Shown here: in pieces, positions 3,992 to 33,973 of the stretch | How the letters are laid out: each line of letters begins with the position of its first letter | Numbering within the stretch: the first letter of the stretch is position 1 | IMG/VR virus record: IMGVR_UViG_2802429220_000013 | Reading direction: 5' to 3' (one strand) | Source: a virus | Lineage: Duplodnaviria; Heunggongvirae; Uroviricota; Caudoviricetes | DNA: 39,831 bases | Program-made: the position numbers and the translations under genes | The notes under the pieces: model-generated | Database searches by the model: none | What the model was told of the DNA's origin: nothing | What the model saw: only the letters and a program-made list of their open reading frames with translations

Positions 3992-4464
3992 TTGTTGCCT
4001 CCTTCACGTAGCTCGGCGGCAAAAGCTACTGCGTGATCATGATGTTCAAGTGTGTATGCACACTCCGCAAACATCTCCACCCCCTGCGCACGTACTTCAG
4101 CCAGGAATGCGTCGGTGGCCGGGGTTTTGATTTCGTTAAGTGCATCACTGAATCCACCTCTCTCCATACCTAGCTCTGCTTCGTAATCGGCATCGAATGC
4201 AGCGTCTTTGCAGAACTTCTTCAGCCCCGCATTCTCCACCGCCAGCGCTGAAAACTTCTCGTGTGCCAACTTAACAGCCGAATAAGCCTGCTTAATTGAC
4301 TCAATCGCTCTCTGCTGGTCTTCGGACAGAGCCGAAATCTTGGCCTCCGCTTCAGCAAATTTACGCACCAGATATTCAGCGTTTGTTTCGTTGACCTTTA
4401 AATCTCGTGGGATGCATTTGCCTTTCAGAAAACCATCCATCTCAATTAGTGTCATTTGTTTCAT
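3988..4464 (-). CDS. Hypothetical early protein (158 aa)
   Basis: ORF with overlapping stop/start with neighbours; predicted helical, acidic. Confidence 0.45.
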
Positions 4465-4625
4465 TTCTTCCCACTCCGCAACATCGCATTCAGATATTTG
4501 TTGTCATTAACAGAACCGAAACTCTTTCGCTTAAGTAATTCCTCTCTCGATGGCATTGGCTTTACGCGTTGGCGAATAATCATTTCTGCCGGAAGAATGC
4601 CGGGATTGTATGCAAGTCCTCTCAT
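4464..4625 (-). CDS. Hypothetical small protein (53 aa), not in the supplied ORF track
   Basis: Fills the gap between two tracked ORFs with ATGA-type overlaps at both ends; basic protein [54 protein letters not shown]. Confidence 0.3.
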
Positions 4626-4903
4626 GATTTACTCTCCACGAACTGGTCAATAGCCATGCTAAGTGACACACCTAAAGTCTCGATATGCTGCTGAATATCC
4701 TGTAGCGTCTGCGCCTGAGATAACAGGATTTCACGGTTGCATAACTCTTTAACCAGATGCTCAAACTTGCTGTAATAACCGATACGACTGAGCGTTTCTT
4801 TCCCTGCATTCTCGCCTTCTTTGATAATTCCTCTTTCGCTAAGAATCAGGTCGTGTTTGGTTCCGGTAATAACGTATTTTCCGAGGTCGATGTTTAGCTT
4901 CAT
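4622..4903 (-). CDS. Hypothetical early protein (93 aa)
   Basis: ATG with GGAG RBS; position in early-left operon. Confidence 0.45.
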
Positions 4904-5245: not shown

Positions 5246-5728
5246 TTATTTGATAAGAAGTGAAGGTTTCCCAACTTTGAGTTGAGCGCCGGGGATATTT
5301 ATTCCTGCTTTTAGTTGGTGTTTGATTGCCAGTTTGTCGGCTTTAATTGTCGTTTCAAACTCAACGTATTCAGGAGGAAGGGCGCTTGAGTCGATGATTT
5401 CTACAGTTTCTGACGGTTTGCGGATTGTTACCTGGTGAATACCTGCTCTAATCTTTTTCTTGCCAACCATTTCAAGCGATGACGCTATATACGCCATAAT
5501 GCTGCCAATCTTATTTTGAATTACTGCGGCTCGCTCATTCAGTGACTTTGCCTCTTCCTTGAGGCGTTCAGCATAACCAGATTCATTTTTAATAATGGCA
5601 AGAAGTTGCTCTATTTTATCGGTAAATTCTCCTTCCATGCCTTCTATTGTGTCAGCAATCATCTCTGGTTCTAAATCTGAATCCATCAATTTTGCGTATT
5701 CATTGGCAATTTCATACAGTTTGCTCAC
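5246..5728 (-). CDS. Sipho_Gp157-like protein associated with the recombinase
   Basis: About 160 aa, coiled-coil rich, immediately downstream of recT. Start set at GTG with GGAGG 6 nt upstream (track begins at a TTG 6 nt earlier). Confidence 0.4.
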   Translation of the reverse strand: MSKLYEIANEYAKLMDSDLEPEMIADTIEGMEGEFTDKIEQLLAIIKNESGYAERLKEEAKSLNERAAVIQNKIGSIMAYIASSLEMVGKKKIRAGIHQVTIRKPSETVEIIDSSALPPEYVEFETTIKADKLAIKHQLKAGINIPGAQLKVGKPSLLIK

Positions 5729-6623
5729 TGGCAACCTCCAGTTTCGCTTTGCATTCTATGTAAATGGCTTGTACGTTCTGCTGCAATTTCATTCCAGATG
5801 TCAGGCGATATGCTTCTGCAAAATATCGCTTCAAATCATCCATGTTTTCTGCCTGAGCCATTTCATCGCAAAGAAGTTGTGCTTTATCCATTATTTCCTG
5901 CTGGCGTTTCCGTTCATCTTCGCGGATATCTTCCTCTGATTTGTGCGGCATAACTGGTTCGGTCCACACGCCTTCTTCTTCGTTTAGTACGTGAATAGCA
6001 CTATCAAGGCGTGATGCCTTAGGCCAATACTTGCTTGCACGCTTTACGACCGTCTTTCGCGCCATCTCATTCCAGTGATTTACCCATGGTCCTTTATCGC
6101 TGAATGCTGCCTTGCTTGTTTTCCTTACAGCCTCAATTTCAGCCAGACTCATCTCTTCCGTTAGATAATCACCTGCTGGCGTCTTAACTGTGCAGTAAAC
6201 GCCAACGATATCACCACGGTCACCGAAGGCGTTGTATTTATGGGTTGGTGCTTTATCAAGCCCGTTTGACTCATAGGTATCGTTAGCATGAACAAGTTTT
6301 GCCTGACCCCATGAGATAACACCAGACTCCATTGCAATATGGAGCAATCCCATATAGCTGATATCAAGGCACACCATGCCGTCGCGAGGAACCAGATAAG
6401 CCAGTTTGCTGGCCGGGTTTAAGGTGATGCCGATCGCCGCAACATTGATGATGGCGTTCTGTGCGCTGGTTGGATTTGCCAGTGCTGTTTTAGCCAGGTA
6501 ATCGTTTTTCTGGAAATACTGAATTGCAAACTGGCTTTCCTTAGCCCATGTCACCGTCTGTTCAGTCAATGCTCCGCAGAATAACTGCTCCTGCTGTTTA
6601 ACGAATTCAACGATATTGCTCAT
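5712..6623 (-). CDS. recT: RecT-family single-strand annealing recombinase
   Basis: 303 aa; motif GPWVNHWNEMARKTVVKRASKYWP matches the conserved RecT segment GPWVTHWEEMAKKTAIRRLFKYLP; GGAG RBS. Confidence 0.75.
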   Translation of the reverse strand: MSNIVEFVKQQEQLFCGALTEQTVTWAKESQFAIQYFQKNDYLAKTALANPTSAQNAIINVAAIGITLNPASKLAYLVPRDGMVCLDISYMGLLHIAMESGVISWGQAKLVHANDTYESNGLDKAPTHKYNAFGDRGDIVGVYCTVKTPAGDYLTEEMSLAEIEAVRKTSKAAFSDKGPWVNHWNEMARKTVVKRASKYWPKASRLDSAIHVLNEEEGVWTEPVMPHKSEEDIREDERKRQQEIMDKAQLLCDEMAQAENMDDLKRYFAEAYRLTSGMKLQQNVQAIYIECKAKLEVASEQTV

Positions 6624-7508: not shown

Positions 7509-8132
7509 CTATGCGGCCTCGGAAGGAAGTCCAATCATCTTATTCAAATCTTCTACCCGTAAAGCAGGAAGTGCTGTACTTGCTTTATCTGCTTCTTTTG
7601 GTAGCAATTCTTTGCTTTCAGGCCAAACCTCAATAAGTCGCTTAACTGTTGTGACTGAGTTCAAAGCAGCCCATACATTTGATTCGATATCCTTTTTCTT
7701 GGCTTCAAGTTTTTGTTGCAATGCGCAGATTTCATCAAACCTTTTTGTTATTTCGTGTTCTGCGCTAAACATGCATTTATCTTTGTTCGGAGTAGGGAGC
7801 AATATATCTTCGCCGTTGCCGTCTTTCCCATATGAAAGCCATCCAACCCTTCTGCCAGATACAGTCAGATAAATTGAAGTAGAACGAACATCGTATGAGT
7901 AAAATGAACATCCAATCTTTCCAAGTTCTTCACTTATAGCTACCAACTTGGATGATAACTGATTCACTTCCTCAGTTTTCTTTTTACCGCCAAACGCAAT
8001 AACTCTGGCGTCAAGTGCAAGCTGGTTCTTTAACTTTGTTACTTCTTCAAGTTCAGTGAAAACCCCAGACTTAATTAAAGCGTTACGAGCGATTTCCTCT
8101 TTCATTCTCGTAGTTAAGCGGATTGATGACAT
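7509..8132 (-). CDS. Hypothetical 207-aa protein immediately downstream of N (ral/sieB slot)
   Basis: Internal ATG with GAGAGGAATTAAT RBS 12 nt after the N stop; hydrophilic, no TM segments; no family recognised. Confidence 0.55.
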   Translation of the reverse strand: MSSIRLTTRMKEEIARNALIKSGVFTELEEVTKLKNQLALDARVIAFGGKKKTEEVNQLSSKLVAISEELGKIGCSFYSYDVRSTSIYLTVSGRRVGWLSYGKDGNGEDILLPTPNKDKCMFSAEHEITKRFDEICALQQKLEAKKKDIESNVWAALNSVTTVKRLIEVWPESKELLPKEADKASTALPALRVEDLNKMIGLPSEAA

Positions 8133-8143
8133 ATTAATTCCTC

Positions 8144-29530: not shown

Positions 29531-30937
29531 ATGTCTACTTGGCAAGGAACAAACGGCGGATTGTTGGCTGGTATCGGCGGCGTCAACTCAAACGCTCCGA
29601 GCGTAAACGACATCGGCAATACGCTTCAGCTTATCAGGCAGAACAATGATATTGAGCGTTCAGGCGCTAACAATGTTGGGCTGACTGCTTTGCAAGGCCT
29701 TTCAGGTATTGCGGGGGTGTTTCAGCAGGAAAAGCAGGCTCAGCGGCAGAAAGAATTTCAGCAGGCATACGCTAATGCTTATGCGTCTGGTGATCGCGGT
29801 GCTTTGCGTCAGTTGGCTACTCAATATCCAGACCAGATTGAATCCGTTCGTAAAGGCATGGGATTCATTGATGAAGAGCAGCGTAATTCTATCGGCACCT
29901 TAGCGGCTGGCGCACGCCTTGCGTCATCGTCTCCAGAAGCAATGCAATCATGGCTGCAAAACAACGCCAAGGAACTGACTCGCGTCGGTGTTGACCCTAA
30001 CAGCGTTGCTCAGATGTATCAGCAGAATCCTTCAGGATTTGGTGAGTTTGTTGATCACCTTGGGATGGCTGCTCTCGGTCCGATTGACTACTTCAATGTT
30101 CAGGACAAGATGGCTGGTCGTGAGATTGACCGAGGCAGGCTGGCAGAGACAATCCGCAGCAATCAGGCTGGAGAGGCGCTTCAGGCGAGAGGGCAAAATC
30201 TTTCCTATCAGTCAGCAATGACTGGTCACAATATCGCAGCGCAACGCTTGGCTCTGGATCAGCAAGAGTTCGGGTTTAAGATGCAGCAAGCGCAGGAAAA
30301 GGCTCAGCAGTTGATTAGCGAAGCACCTAAGCTGTCAGTAAACATGGAAAAAGGCATCGAGACGGCTGTAAACAATGCCACAGCATCATCAAACTCAGCC
30401 AATTCCATGAGTGCGCTTGCTCAACAGTTCAGAGCAGAAAAACCAACGACAGGTTTGTTCGGTAACGCACAGAACATGTTCGCAAAACTTACCGGAAGCG
30501 ATACGACATTGCGTGATTTGCGCATTCGCCAAAATGCCCTTGTTAACAGTCAGGTTCTTAAATTCCTACCTCCCGGCCCCGCAACGGATAAAGACGTTGA
30601 GATCGTTCGTCAGGGTGCACCAACTGACATGGATAACCCTGAGACGGTCGCAAGATGGCTTGATGCTATGGCAAACCTTGAGCGACGAAACGCGCAGTTT
30701 AATGAGTTTAAAGCCGAGTGGATGAGCGCGAATGGCAACCCTGGACAATCGCGTAATGGCGGTCAGATATTGGGGTTGGATGTTAAAAAAGGTGAATCAT
30801 TGGGGAGTGCCGTTAAGCGGTATATGTCGATGAATACTGACGCAGCGCCAGCACAAGATTCGACACCTTCAGGAGAACCACGGAATCAGGTTGGATCATA
30901 TACCTCAAAATCAGGCATTCAATTTACGGTGGAATGA
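29531..30937 (+). CDS. Ejection protein (P22 gp20-like)
   Basis: 468 aa; synteny and size. Confidence 0.7.
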
Positions 30938-32781
30938 TGAAAGTAACTGCAAACGGTAAGACATTTACCTTTCCTGATGGTACGAGCACCGAAGATATTG
31001 GCACCGCCATTGATGAGTATTTTGCTGGTCAGGCTGTTCAGCAACAAACAGTTAATCAGGCCAATAATGCACCAACACGGGAAGAACCATCATTGATGCA
31101 ACAAGCTGGCGATTGGCTCACTGGTGGTCAAAGTGCAGGGCAAATTGCAGAACAGGCTGGTCGTGGTCTGGTAAACATACCATTTGACGTATTGCAGGGT
31201 GGCGCAAGTCTGATTAATGCAATCAGTCAGGGGCTTGGTGGACCCAAGGTTTTGGATGATGTTTATCGTCCAGTAGACAGACCGACAGACCCCTACGCGC
31301 AAGCCGGTGAAACAATTGGTGGGTATTTAGTTCCAGGAGTTGGAACGGCAGGAAGCATGGCTATTGGCTCACTGGCAGAGGCCACAAATCAGAAAGGCGA
31401 TTTCGCACAAAATGCAGCTAAAAATGCCGGAGTTAACCTTGCCACTCAGGGTGTTCTTTCCGCAGCAGCAAAGGGAATAGGGCGTGGAATAACGGCTATA
31501 AAAGGTGATATTGCGCCAGAAGTGGCGAAGAAAATTGCCACATCAGAATCGATGGGCGTGACACCAATGACATCTGATGTTATCCCGCCGAAAAATGCTT
31601 TCACTCGCGGCCTAACTCAGGATGCCGAGGGGGCTTTGCTCGGGACAGGCTCAAAGCGAGCGGAGCAATATGCAACGCGTAGTAAGTTGGTAAGTAATTA
31701 TTTTGACCGTTTTGGTGAGTACAACCCGGATGATGTGGTGAAATCTCTGACCACCACGTTAAGGGGACGGAAGGATGCCGCTGGCGCTGTTATCAATGAC
31801 GTTACCAATAAAATGGGTAATGCCGCAGTTGATACCACAAATACCATGAATGCTCTGAATACAGCGATCGCAAGACAGGAACGGCTTGGGACGTCTGCCA
31901 ATCAAAGCCTGCTTACATCCTTGCGTAACCTACGTGAAGAATTAGCAAACCCTGCAACTGATTTGGATGTTACGTTTGATCTCTTGCGTCAGCACAGAAC
32001 AGCATTTAGATCTAATGTTCAGGGAGATGCTATGGTCTTCCCCAACCAGGCAAAAGCAGCTACCAATATGGTAGAGAATGCAATGTCAAAAGATCTTCGT
32101 AACGCAGTTGCAAAAAACCTCGGTGCATCAGACGCAGCAAAATACCTTAAAGCAAATTCCGATTATGCAAACGTTTATAATAAGGTGCTTAATAAAAACA
32201 TTGCTAACAAGCTCAACAAGGCAAGCAGTGAAGCCAGTCCTGAACTTATAAATACCGTTGTATTAAGCAGAAAACCATCTGACGTGAAACGAATCTGGAG
32301 CGCACTGGATGATAAAGGGAAAGATGCTATGCGTGCAGCTTACGTCAGCAAAATAGCGGAAAAGGCCGGTGACTCTCCAGCCAAGTTCATCACTGAAGTT
32401 AATAAGCTGAAATCTCAGTCAGGCGGTGAAATTTACAACACTATTTTTTCAGGAAAGCACATGAAAGAGCTTGATGCTCTTCATGAAGTTCTACAGCAAA
32501 CAGCAAGGTCAGACACCGCAAATGTAGTAACTCAGACGGGGCAATCGCAAGCCAACAGGATAAGGACGATTGGCGCAACTGCGACTCTTGGCGTATCAAT
32601 GGGGCTTGAGGCTGGTTTCGGTGCAATGATGCGCTTGTATGAGTCCAAAGCAGCAAGGAATGCTCTCTTACGTCTGGCAAACACCAAAGCAGGAACACCA
32701 GCCTATGAAAGAGCGCTAAATAATGCTGCAAATGCGATACGCCCTATACTTTCAAGCCAAATTACAGCAGAACAGCAATAA
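30934..32781 (+). CDS. Ejection protein (P22 gp16-like)
   Basis: 615 aa; synteny and size; last gene of the rightward late block before immI. Confidence 0.7.
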
Positions 32782-32795
32782 AAGATAAGATATAA

Positions 32796-33281
32796 CTACC
32801 TGATATTACTGCTACTGTTGCATGTTACCGTGTTTCCAAATCCTGAATTGCAGTTTGTATATGTGTCAACGCGTGTTGGGTAAGGTTGAGTTATAACAGG
32901 CTGGCGCGCTTTTTGCTCGATCGCTTGCATTGTGTTTACAGCCTGATAATTCAATAAAGCCTGCTGGAATGCTTGGCTTTGTGCTATTTGTTGTGCTTGT
33001 TCTTGGCTTTGTAATTGAACATAAAGATTCTGAAGTTCAAGTCTTGCCTGTGTGTCACTTATCTTGCCTTCATCGACACCTTGCCCGAGCATCTTCGCAG
33101 CAAGGACATACAGCTTAGGTGTTGGTGCTGATGCCATGCGAGAGTCGTTCTTCAAGCTGGCATCAAGGCAATTAGCCATATCGCTAAGCTTTGGATAGCG
33201 TTGCTCGCAACTTGCCTGATAGTCGCTTACTTTTGCGCACCCAGCCAGCAGAAGCGGGATAATTAACAGTGATTTTTTCAT
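32796..33281 (-). CDS. Predicted outer-membrane lipoprotein (moron in the sieA slot)
   Basis: Start at ATG with AAGGAG RBS; signal peptide MKKSLLIIPLLLAGC with lipobox, +2 Ala; Gln-rich coiled-coil C-terminal region; opposite strand to late operon. Confidence 0.6.
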   Translation of the reverse strand: MKKSLLIIPLLLAGCAKVSDYQASCEQRYPKLSDMANCLDASLKNDSRMASAPTPKLYVLAAKMLGQGVDEGKISDTQARLELQNLYVQLQSQEQAQQIAQSQAFQQALLNYQAVNTMQAIEQKARQPVITQPYPTRVDTYTNCNSGFGNTVTCNSSSNIR

Positions 33282-33315
33282 ATAATTAACTCTCCTTAGT
33301 TTTGCGCAGGATACC

Positions 33316-33681
33316 ATGAAAAAAGTTAACATTGGAAACGTACCAAAGATGCTCGTACCGCTCTTTGAGAGCGGTACAATTGTGTTTTGTAGAGACTTTC
33401 CAGAATGGCAACGCCTGCATCAAAAACTTGGCGTTGACGTGCATGACTCGGACGCCAACGGAGCGTCTCATACAATGAGTAGCGAGAATGGTGTTTTGCA
33501 TGTGATAGGCGTGTTCAATGGCAAACTATCTACTATTGCCCATGAGTGCGCTCACATGGCATTCGATATCTGCTCAAGGGTAGGTGTTGATGTTGAACCA
33601 GGAAGAGCCAACGAGACTTACTGCTACTTAATGAGCAGGCTTGTTGAGTTCTGCGAGCGACATATCAAAAAGCCGGAGTGA
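33316..33681 (+). CDS. Hypothetical 121-aa protein with an HExxH motif (HECAH)
   Basis: ATG with AGGA RBS, divergent from the lipoprotein gene with 34 bp between starts; single HExxH motif; no family recognised. Confidence 0.5.
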   Translation: MKKVNIGNVPKMLVPLFESGTIVFCRDFPEWQRLHQKLGVDVHDSDANGASHTMSSENGVLHVIGVFNGKLSTIAHECAHMAFDICSRVGVDVEPGRANETYCYLMSRLVEFCERHIKKPE

Positions 33682-33694
33682 CCCGGCTTGATTA

Positions 33695-33874
33695 TTACTT
33701 TTTGCTGTCTGGAGTTCGCTTATCCAATACCCAGCCATGACCTGGCTTTGTTGTTGGTGGAAGCCTTTCGTTGTCCTTGACGGTGGCAAAATTGTCTTTC
33801 TTACCGCCGCGTGGGCCAACTTCTTGGTATATTCCGCCGTTTTTCCCTGTGTTTTCACCTGGTTTTTTCGCCAT
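33695..33874 (-). CDS. Hypothetical small basic Gly/Lys-rich protein (59 aa)
   Basis: Internal ATG with GAGG RBS; MAKKPGENTGKNGGIYQEVGPRGGKKDNFATVKDNERLPPTTKPGHGWVLDKRTPDSKK. Confidence 0.4.
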   Translation of the reverse strand: MAKKPGENTGKNGGIYQEVGPRGGKKDNFATVKDNERLPPTTKPGHGWVLDKRTPDSKK

Positions 33875-33973
33875 GATATACCTCAACATACACCCGCTAT
33901 TGGGCGATTAAATATTGATCTCATTTTATAAGTAGTCAATATGGCCCAGGTAAATGCAAAAATTAACTCACCG

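Follow-up and report, generated by a model that had tools for sequence, protein, structure and literature searches.

A predicted lipoprotein encoded in the sieA slot of P22-like prophages, a candidate superinfection exclusion factor

At the position where phage P22 carries the exclusion gene sieA, a P22-like E. coli prophage of the Caudoviricetes (IMG/VR record IMGVR_UViG_2802429220_000013; the window analyzed here is the whole stretch of 39,831 nucleotides) carries a different minus-strand gene, which raises the question whether the product of this gene substitutes for SieA or serves some other function. The gene (32796..33281, minus strand) runs from an ATG at 33281-33279 to a TAG stop codon at 32798-32796 and encodes a protein of 161 aa that begins with MKKSLLIIPLLLAGCAKVSDYQ. 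These are exactly the limits given in the first-pass annotation of this DNA, which also credited the gene with a ribosome-binding site of its own; the Shine-Dalgarno (SD) sequence AAGGAG indeed lies at 33297-33292, 10 nt before the ATG. A mechanically compiled ORF list contains a longer form of 178 aa that starts from an ATG at 33332. The start is placed at MKK because PGAP annotates the corresponding 486-nt form in an identical E. coli prophage, because this start is common to all homologues, and because the similarity between the upstream sequences of different contexts stops a few bases 5' of this ATG.

The protein has 90 homologues, with 50-97% identity, across Enterobacterales (E. coli, Citrobacter, Serratia, Klebsiella aerogenes, Yersinia, Pectobacterium, Morganella, Providencia, Proteus and Tatumella), and a profile search identifies 242 relatives, counted as cluster representatives. 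It gives a full-length match to phrog_6067, a family of unknown function (E = 2.9e-109, residues 1-161 aligned with profile positions 1-161), and no other PHROG profile is matched at E <= 0.01. Scans against Pfam and NCBIfam yield no match at E <= 1, the PADLOC-DB 2.0 scan detects 0 defence families at E <= 1, and ten remote relatives scanned alongside against Pfam, NCBIfam and PADLOC give nothing meaningful. A sequence-profile search of the PDB returns chance matches only (E about 1), and in the literature library that was searched, neither its accession and locus tag nor keywords led to a paper that describes it. The median dN/dS among 55 distinct alleles is 0.05, which indicates strong purifying selection; codons 136-161, with a dN/dS of 0.006, are the most constrained part of the gene, and no diversifying selection is seen across the alleles. 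The view that 32796-33281 is a chance, non-functional ORF antisense to the late operon can appeal to the small size of the gene and its annotation as a 'hypothetical protein', and to nothing else; this view is already refuted by the conservation from E. coli to Proteus and beyond, the invariant cysteine pattern, the low dN/dS and the RNA-seq signal described below, and is extremely improbable.

Analysis of the genomic context identifies the slot. On its left border, the gene converges with a homologue of gene 16 (30934..32781, plus strand), which encodes an ejection protein with 68% identity to the C-terminus of P22 gp16 and has its stop codon 14 nt from the lipoprotein gene. The neighbour on the other side is a divergent hkcC-like ORF (33316..33681, plus strand), which encodes a 121 aa protein with an HExxH motif, 99% identical to P22, and overlaps the promoter region of the lipoprotein gene. 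It is followed by orf59a, mnt, arc, ant and the tailspike gene, which is the layout of P22 immI. In P22 itself (NC_002371), the order is gene 16, sieA on the minus strand, PsieA, an unannotated plus-strand ORF (hkcC), the mnt terminator, orf59a, mnt, Pmnt/Pant, arc, ant and gene 9 (for the layout including hkcC, see PMC2629481). Thus, the gene order bears out the earlier assignment of this minus-strand gene, antisense to the late operon, to the sieA slot, and comparison of the adjoining DNA makes the equivalence firmer than was originally claimed. The sequence upstream of the lipoprotein gene differs from that upstream of P22 sieA by 2 mismatches in about 135 nt, through CTAAGGAG including the SD (33292..33297, minus strand), which is common to P22 sieA, and from a few bases 3' of the SD on there is no similarity between the lipoprotein gene and P22 sieA. 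At the other border, the end of gene 16 is about 70% identical to P22, and the likeness stops at the gene 16 stop codon. The upstream identity that extends up to the SD and is followed by none shows that the lipoprotein ORF has taken the place of the sieA ORF precisely, ORF for ORF, with the P22-type promoter region and SD kept.

The gene is present in 186 of the 5426 complete E. coli genomes, always on the chromosome and nearly always in a single copy; the carriers include O104:H4 2011C-3493, where the gene is annotated 'lipoprotein'. With the gp7 homologue, found in 819-1249 E. coli genomes, taken as a rough proxy, about 15-23% of the E. coli P22-like prophages carry the lipoprotein. Frameshifted and chimeric copies of the gene occur as well. 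In P22-like prophages of several genera, the gene adjoins gene 16; in Yersinia ruckeri, it is the sole gene between gene 16 and the tailspike gene, and in Tatumella terrea, the order is mnt, a Rap1a-family gene and the lipoprotein gene, the latter converging on an SLT-containing gp16. Lipoproteins that are 97-100% identical are found beside at least four gp16 types (99, 69-77, 41-48 and about 34% identity; tblastn, 86 loci), several gp20 types and differing right-hand neighbours. The lipoprotein thus shows no linkage to a single gp16 or gp20 type, at least four gp16 types being present next to it.

Only about a third of the sequenced P22-like phages (22 of 66) have sieA (PMC10883804). A tblastn search for P22-type SieA over 86 lipoprotein loci found none. 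The lipoprotein loci combine mosaic flanks with constant adjacency to gene 16, and 84 of the 85 scanned have no SieA-like ORF (110-260 aa with at least three TM segments) within 3 kb. P22 SieA, the control for this TM scan, scores 3; SieA types B and C were screened via the TM scan, and P22 SieA by direct comparison. In the examined loci, the lipoprotein and SieA-like proteins are mutually exclusive.

The region equivalent to P22 PsieA spans 33308..33346 on the minus strand. The segment 33346-33316 is the counterpart of the promoter feature annotated in NC_002371, and TGGTATCCT at 33316-33308 is a candidate extended -10 element (TGnTATCCT). At 53 of 84 loci, including those whose more distal upstream sequence is unrelated, the element TCATGnTATCCTGnnnAAAACTAAGGAG stands 5' of the lipoprotein gene; among the remaining loci, 20 have the AAGGAG part only, and 10 have the gene immediately behind another mnt-operon ORF. 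A simple sigma-70 scan calls no promoter 5' of the lipoprotein gene, and the assignment is based on the identity to the P22 PsieA region and on the conserved TGnTATCCT element. P22 sieA together with 85 bp of upstream DNA confers full exclusion when placed elsewhere in the chromosome (Leavitt et al. 2024, PMC10883804), so that the PsieA region is an active promoter in P22. By comparison with P22, we infer that the corresponding region upstream of the lipoprotein gene has promoter activity in this host. A bidirectional terminator-like hairpin (33670..33689), located at the position of the P22 mnt terminator, would separate the mnt-orf59a transcript from the slot gene, and the lipoprotein gene therefore needs a promoter of its own in this window.

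Transcription of a close homologue in a lysogen is documented. The prophage Gally of E. coli LF82 encodes a 97.5%-identical copy of the lipoprotein (LF82_138 = GALLYPH_13), which in the LF82 lysogen grown overnight in LB has a normalised count of 70, compared with 15.6 for the prophage median and 13.7 for the adjacent gene 16, the moron cut-off set by the authors being 78 (PMC9928086). The gene is transcribed in uninduced lysogens in which the neighbouring structural and late genes are silent, and more strongly in other conditions: in macrophages at 6 h versus LB, log2FC is 2.55 (about 6-fold, q = 4.7e-27), with an increase already apparent in the non-LB control conditions (PMC9928086). The count in the lysogen implies transcription while the prophage is repressed. 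A location downstream of mnt, as the lipoprotein gene has in O104:H4, Proteus phage Brookers and Tatumella, also corresponds to lysogeny-type expression. The locus has the properties of a moron as defined in PMC2629481: it is non-morphogenetic, lies between genes 16 and 9, is variably present, has its own signals and, according to the Gally RNA-seq, is transcribed in the prophage. The hypervariable region between genes 16 and 9 is known as the 'ant moron' of P22-like phages (Villafane et al. 2008, PMC2629481).

These expression data bear on a possible function of the protein in the lytic cycle. In that case, the lipoprotein would either guard progeny virions from abortive ejection on debris or act in lysis and release in the manner of an o-spanin. 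Compatible with such a role, P22 sieA, which has the same promoter region, is up-regulated also on induction (PMC10883804). The transcription in uninduced lysogens with silent late genes is at odds with it, as is the position of the gene, which runs antisense to the late operon and does not belong to the lysis cassette; in Gally, this cassette contains an Rz gene of its own. Protection of progeny from abortive ejection is one of the roles proposed for Llp of T5, and the spanins include outer-membrane lipoproteins with periplasmic helices, which speaks for the idea; the slot gene, however, does not fit an o-spanin (Rz1-like), being far from the lysis genes, in antisense orientation and without a partner i-spanin gene. 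A lytic-cycle role is, accordingly, very unlikely.

The predicted localization of the protein follows from its N-terminus. The signal peptide and lipobox occupy residues 1-15 (33237..33281, minus strand), with the lipobox L12-A13-G14-C15 at 33248-33237 and Cys15 as the predicted lipidated first mature residue. The sequence MKKSLLIIPLLLAG|C, with K2 and K3, six non-charged residues and L-L-A-G-C, conforms to the PROSITE PS51257-type lipobox rule, which was applied in the form of a positive n-region, an uncharged h-region and [LVI][ASTVI][GAS]-C with the Cys between positions 15 and 35. G14 and C15 are invariant in 27 close homologues, C15 is near-invariant in 134 diverse family members, and 114 of these 134 fit the strict rule; the lipoprotein signal peptide with LLAGC and Ala at +2 that had been noted from the sequence is thereby upheld. 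The residues at +2 and +3 are Ala16 and Lys, and Asp at +2 occurs in 0 of the 114 lipobox-fitting members; thus, the Lol-avoidance signal (Asp at +2) is absent, which corresponds to an outer-membrane-type sorting signal. The signal peptide is the sole hydrophobic stretch of the protein. In a few relatives, an SPase-I type signal takes the place of the lipobox, and this, too, points to a periplasmic family. The slot gene product is thus predicted to be lipidated and located at the outer membrane.

The cysteine pattern of the mature part points in the same direction. G14, C15, A16, C25 and C38 are invariant in the 27 close homologues; the 134 diverse relatives all retain C25 and C38 and nearly all retain C15, Q22, Y58, L65 and A79, and C144 and C154 are nearly invariant in an alignment of 40 sequences. 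Exactly five cysteines in the mature part, the lipid Cys and four others, are present in 95 of the 114 lipobox-fitting members, a number consistent with two disulfides and thus with a protein in the oxidising periplasm. The protein is accordingly expected to contain disulfides, of which C25-C38 is probable. An AlphaFold model built from an alignment of 134 sequences (mean pLDDT 84.6) consists of three parts. In the N-terminal module (residues 16-100; 32982..33236, minus strand; pLDDT 92-98), which contains the invariant C25 and C38, the short helices of residues 18-70 and the start of a long helix pack into a bundle. The long helix extends over about 50 residues (76-125), and its distal part is rich in Gln (residues 84-125; 32907..33032, minus strand), as seen in the alignment, the composition and the model; residues 84-128, predicted to be helical, contain 33% Gln. 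The C-terminal beta-hairpin (residues 140-158, with strands 140-146 and 152-158; 32808..32864, minus strand) bears C144 and C154 in the motif T-x-C-x3-G-x4-C and coincides with the most constrained codons. Of the Gln-rich coiled coil described in the first-pass annotation, the Gln-rich predicted helix stands, whereas the coiled coil goes beyond the evidence. The Gln-rich extension is lineage-specific: remote relatives lack most of this stretch, and their hairpin is tied to the bundle via a short low-complexity linker. No more than three residues lie between the lipid Cys and the first helix in the model; the bundle should therefore rest on the membrane and the hairpin should face the periplasm. 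Fold comparison of the model gives no informative match. In view of the conservation, the signal peptide and the transcription from the prophage, the gene very probably is a real moron that is expressed in the lysogen and encodes a periplasm-facing lipoprotein.

Remote members of the family extend beyond P22-like phages. On one viral contig (L107), the gene for a 123 aa relative overlaps the end, at the stop codon, of a CI-like repressor gene, and this repressor gene is divergent from replication genes; on another (L090), a relative follows an integrase gene and converges on three genes of 244, 455 and 692 aa. The sizes of these three genes resemble those of gp7, gp20 and gp16; no Pfam or PHROG match marks them as ejection proteins. 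Other relatives are chromosomal and apparently non-phage, namely those from a Muproteobacteria MAG, Desulfatitalea and an Acidiferrobacteraceae MAG, with surroundings that include arginyl-transferase and an RND efflux operon, PEP carboxylase, or MlaD and TPR genes; no phage genes are seen around these three. Scans of genomes, metagenomes and viral sequences reveal no recurrent neighbour of the remote relatives, most of the metagenome loci being too short or from the same organism. The presence of ordinary chromosomal relatives suggests a periplasmic family of cellular origin, whose fold has a role of its own in cells. To judge by these contexts, temperate phages appear to have recruited members of this family on at least three occasions, each time into a position expressed in lysogeny. 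Homology to a known non-defence lipoprotein, which would have spoken against the function originally proposed, was not found, but the remote non-phage homologues on chromosomes weaken a phage-specific reading.

Given this provenance, the gene might be a captured cellular lipoprotein that brings no lysogeny-specific benefit, either a near-neutral passenger or a structural protein, such as an Lpp-like spacer or tether. The breadth of the family beyond phages, the lack of conserved neighbours and the existence of frameshifted and chimeric copies would be compatible with this possibility, and the long helix that, in the model, extends from an outer-membrane anchor recalls Lpp. Neutral prophage passengers, however, decay quickly, whereas within prophages this gene evolves under very strong purifying selection (dN/dS 0.05; hairpin, 0.006), and in several genera and the 186 complete E. 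coli genomes that carry it, it always occupies the same slot and has lysogeny-type expression signals. A passenger or structural role is, therefore, distinctly unlikely.

The function that we favour for the slot lipoprotein, tentatively and with a probability of about 0.4, is superinfection exclusion or phage defence. In this view, the gene is an ant-moron cassette that has taken the place of the sieA ORF and, driven by the P22-type PsieA region and ribosome-binding site, would be expressed in the lysogen. The mature lipoprotein would sit in the periplasm, anchored by its lipid, with a compact helical bundle, stabilized by the C25-C38 disulfide, almost directly on the anchor, and with the Gln-rich helix of about 50 residues projecting from the bundle and ending in the disulfide-locked beta-hairpin. 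In this position it may protect the envelope of the lysogen against incoming phages as a SieA substitute that acts from the outer-membrane or periplasmic side, the conceivable targets being an outer-membrane component needed for penetration by the tail needle or the ejection proteins, or the assembly of the gp7/gp20/gp16 conduit. The observations that speak for exclusion are the exact replacement of sieA, a proven exclusion gene, the mutual exclusivity with SieA-like proteins, the constant adjacency to ejection-protein genes despite the mosaic flanks, and the recruitment of the family into repressor and mnt operons elsewhere, together with the precedent of Llp and Cor. The estimate is kept at this level because the family has cellular homologues and displays no arms-race signature, and because the induction in macrophages and the Rap1a neighbour fit a non-phage role in the envelope equally well. 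The position in the slot is by itself weak evidence for exclusion, given that the ant moron holds unrelated genes of differing function, and the use of O-antigen as the primary receptor by P22-like phages leaves a block of a protein receptor in the style of Cor and Llp without an obvious target.

The same observations lend themselves to a different interpretation, namely, that the protein is an envelope factor of lysogenic conversion that is not directed at phages, alters the outer membrane or periplasm in favour of the host and contributes to stress or serum resistance (as Bor does), to protection from periplasm-acting toxins (T6SS effectors, colicins, lysozymes) or to host colonisation. The chromosomal non-phage homologues, the purifying rather than diversifying selection and the many functions of ant-moron genes (PMC2629481) are all compatible with this interpretation, and so are the Tatumella operon, where a gene of the Rap1a family (T6SS immunity) is located directly upstream of the lipoprotein gene, and the roughly 6-fold increase of GALLYPH_13 in macrophages, together with the level raised already in the non-LB controls (PMC9928086). 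On the opposite side, deletion of the whole of Gally left the survival of LF82 in macrophages unchanged (PMC9928086), the protein is not similar to Bor, TraT, lysozyme inhibitors or members of any immunity family, and the replacement of sieA along with the mutual exclusivity with SieA-like proteins would have to be coincidental. Such an envelope function is somewhat less probable than exclusion but a serious competitor of it. Returning to exclusion, its most specific form would make the slot lipoprotein the first outer-membrane-anchored exclusion factor against P22-like podophages, in which the helix and hairpin intercept the tail needle or the gp7/gp20/gp16 conduit on its way through the outer membrane, doing there what SieA does at the inner membrane, and a member of a wider, so far unrecognised family that was repeatedly recruited into the sieA slot, the mnt operon and a repressor operon; taken as a whole, this extended proposal is speculative and rather unlikely.

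The identification of this gene matters in either case. The lipoprotein fills the sieA slot in the O104:H4 outbreak strain and in the Crohn's-associated LF82, and its family, with more than 240 cluster representatives, is an unannotated periplasmic one that has no Pfam entry and yields a confident structure model. If phage exclusion is its function, barriers to DNA delivery that differ in mechanism would be seen to share one locus and promoter, the crossing of the envelope by podophage ejection proteins would become accessible to study from a second side, that of the outer membrane, and the gene would be relevant to host-range prediction in phage therapy. If, instead, it has a role in the host envelope, lysogenic conversion would gain a new factor, one that is transcribed more strongly in macrophages. 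To a specialist, the finding would come as no surprise; the gene is a clean and common candidate that can be tested cheaply.

One of the closest known systems is P22 SieA. The slot lipoprotein and SieA share the slot, the convergent orientation relative to gene 16 and antisense to the late operon, expression in the prophage, the promoter region and SD, and a similar length (161 aa vs 162-164 aa). SieA, however, spans the inner membrane with 3-4 TM helices, lacks a signal peptide and has the motif FxRYPxEAxxFNK on its cytoplasmic side, whereas the slot lipoprotein has a cleavable lipoprotein signal, no other hydrophobic segment and four periplasm-type cysteines; there is no tblastn similarity between it and P22 SieA, and the FxRYPxEAxxFNK motif is absent. 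The lipoprotein, if it excludes phages, must act from the outer membrane or the periplasm, not from the inner membrane. Llp of T5 and Cor of phi80, N15 and HK022 are outer-membrane lipoproteins that exclude phages by acting on FhuA, and they resemble the slot protein as phage-encoded, predicted inner-leaflet outer-membrane lipoproteins encoded near host-entry genes. They are much smaller, single-domain proteins, differ in fold and in the type of phage targeted, and have no PHROG or Pfam relation to the slot lipoprotein; moreover, the receptor that they act on is a protein used by siphophages, whereas the first binding of P22-like podophages is to O-antigen. Lambda Bor/Iss is likewise a lipoprotein moron expressed in the lysogen and encoded in or beside a lambdoid late region, but Bor confers serum resistance, not exclusion, and has another architecture. 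PF06291 and PF05818, which we take to be the Bor and TraT families, respectively, give no match to the slot lipoprotein at E <= 1, and no relation in sequence or fold to Cor, Llp, Bor, TraT or SieA was found. The Braun lipoprotein Lpp is a lipid-anchored outer-membrane protein that consists mainly of a long helix projecting into the periplasm, and the lipid anchor and long periplasmic helix of the predicted model recall this arrangement; the differences are that Lpp has no globular bundle, no cysteines beyond the lipid Cys, and a Lys end linked to peptidoglycan, and that the two share no sequence similarity. By sequence comparison, then, the slot lipoprotein falls outside the SieA, Cor, Llp, Bor and TraT families and within phrog_6067. 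The ant moron has been described as comprising ten types in sixteen genomes, with many unrelated genes (PMC2629481). The lipoprotein family is not among the phages named there, and a tblastn search for the lipoprotein in HK620 and epsilon34 gives no match; the lipoprotein gene is a further cassette of this region.

Close homologues of the lipoprotein encoded at window 32796-33281 (minus strand) fall into two alleles at the C-terminus, ending in ...VITQPYPTRVDTYTNCNSGFGNTVTCNSSSNIR vs ...TYIPPVQLQNNNVTTNCTTYGNQTRCQSY (alignment A1, residues 126-161), and the N-terminal domains are very similar across both. The presence of two C-terminal sequences on nearly the same N-terminal domain suggests, at the level of sequence comparison, that the hairpin end of the protein is exchanged by module shuffling. 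Separately, the copies of the gene in some E. coli genomes (P0079, P0081, P0021 and P0089) are frameshifted, truncated or chimeric; one of them is fused to an ERF-recombinase-like sequence.

Members of the same family are also encoded in other viral contigs. In the IMG/VR contig 3300024940_000010 (L107, positions 7627-8372), a CI-like HTH repressor gene, itself divergent from the replication genes, has its stop within a 4-nt overlap with the gene for a 123-aa member. Here the family has been recruited independently into the operon of a repressor. In the IMG/VR contig 3300037515_000246 (L090, positions 7992-12944), an integrase gene is followed by a 116-aa member that is convergent with genes of 130, 692, 455 and 244 aa. 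The sizes of the latter three resemble those of gp16, gp20 and gp7, respectively; profile searches with the L090 genes gave no match confirming these identities.

The prophage of Tatumella terrea contains a gene of the Rap1a family (PF18602, a T6SS immunity protein family; L091, positions 5604-5942), flanked by mnt and the lipoprotein gene, all in one operon. Given this arrangement, the ant moron, the variable gene region between genes 16 and 9 of P22-like phages, may include anti-T6SS immunity among its cargo as well.

The divergent neighbour of the lipoprotein gene, a 121-aa ORF (phrog_1365; window 33316-33681, plus strand), is apparently the 'hkcC' of older literature. It contains an HExxH motif (HECAH); a Pfam search with this ORF yielded no match. 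Its ATG lies within the -10 region of PsieA on the opposite strand, so that the back-to-back starts of the two genes are 35 nt apart. Just upstream of the PsieA region, hkcC contains a perfect 10-bp inverted repeat, GTACCGCTCT-TTG-AGAGCGGTAC (window 33355-33377), which could be a terminator or attenuator against late-operon read-through, or a protein-binding site. In Gally, the E. coli LF82 prophage, the hkcC position is occupied by an unrelated 139-aa ORF, GALLYPH_14 (LF82_139; L001, positions 4447-4866), which outside LB is among the top-transcribed Gally genes (log2 fpkm about 10-11), behind the C2 repressor gene.

Between mnt and the terminator, the minus strand encodes a homologue of P22 orf59a (window 33695-33889; 98% identity), which in Pfam scores weakly as YjzC-like (E = 0.0017, under the gathering score). 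P22 likewise has a counterpart of the hkcC-like ORF with 99% identity (NC_002371, positions 13861-14223), which is unannotated in the RefSeq record, and keeps the inverted repeat with one mismatch.
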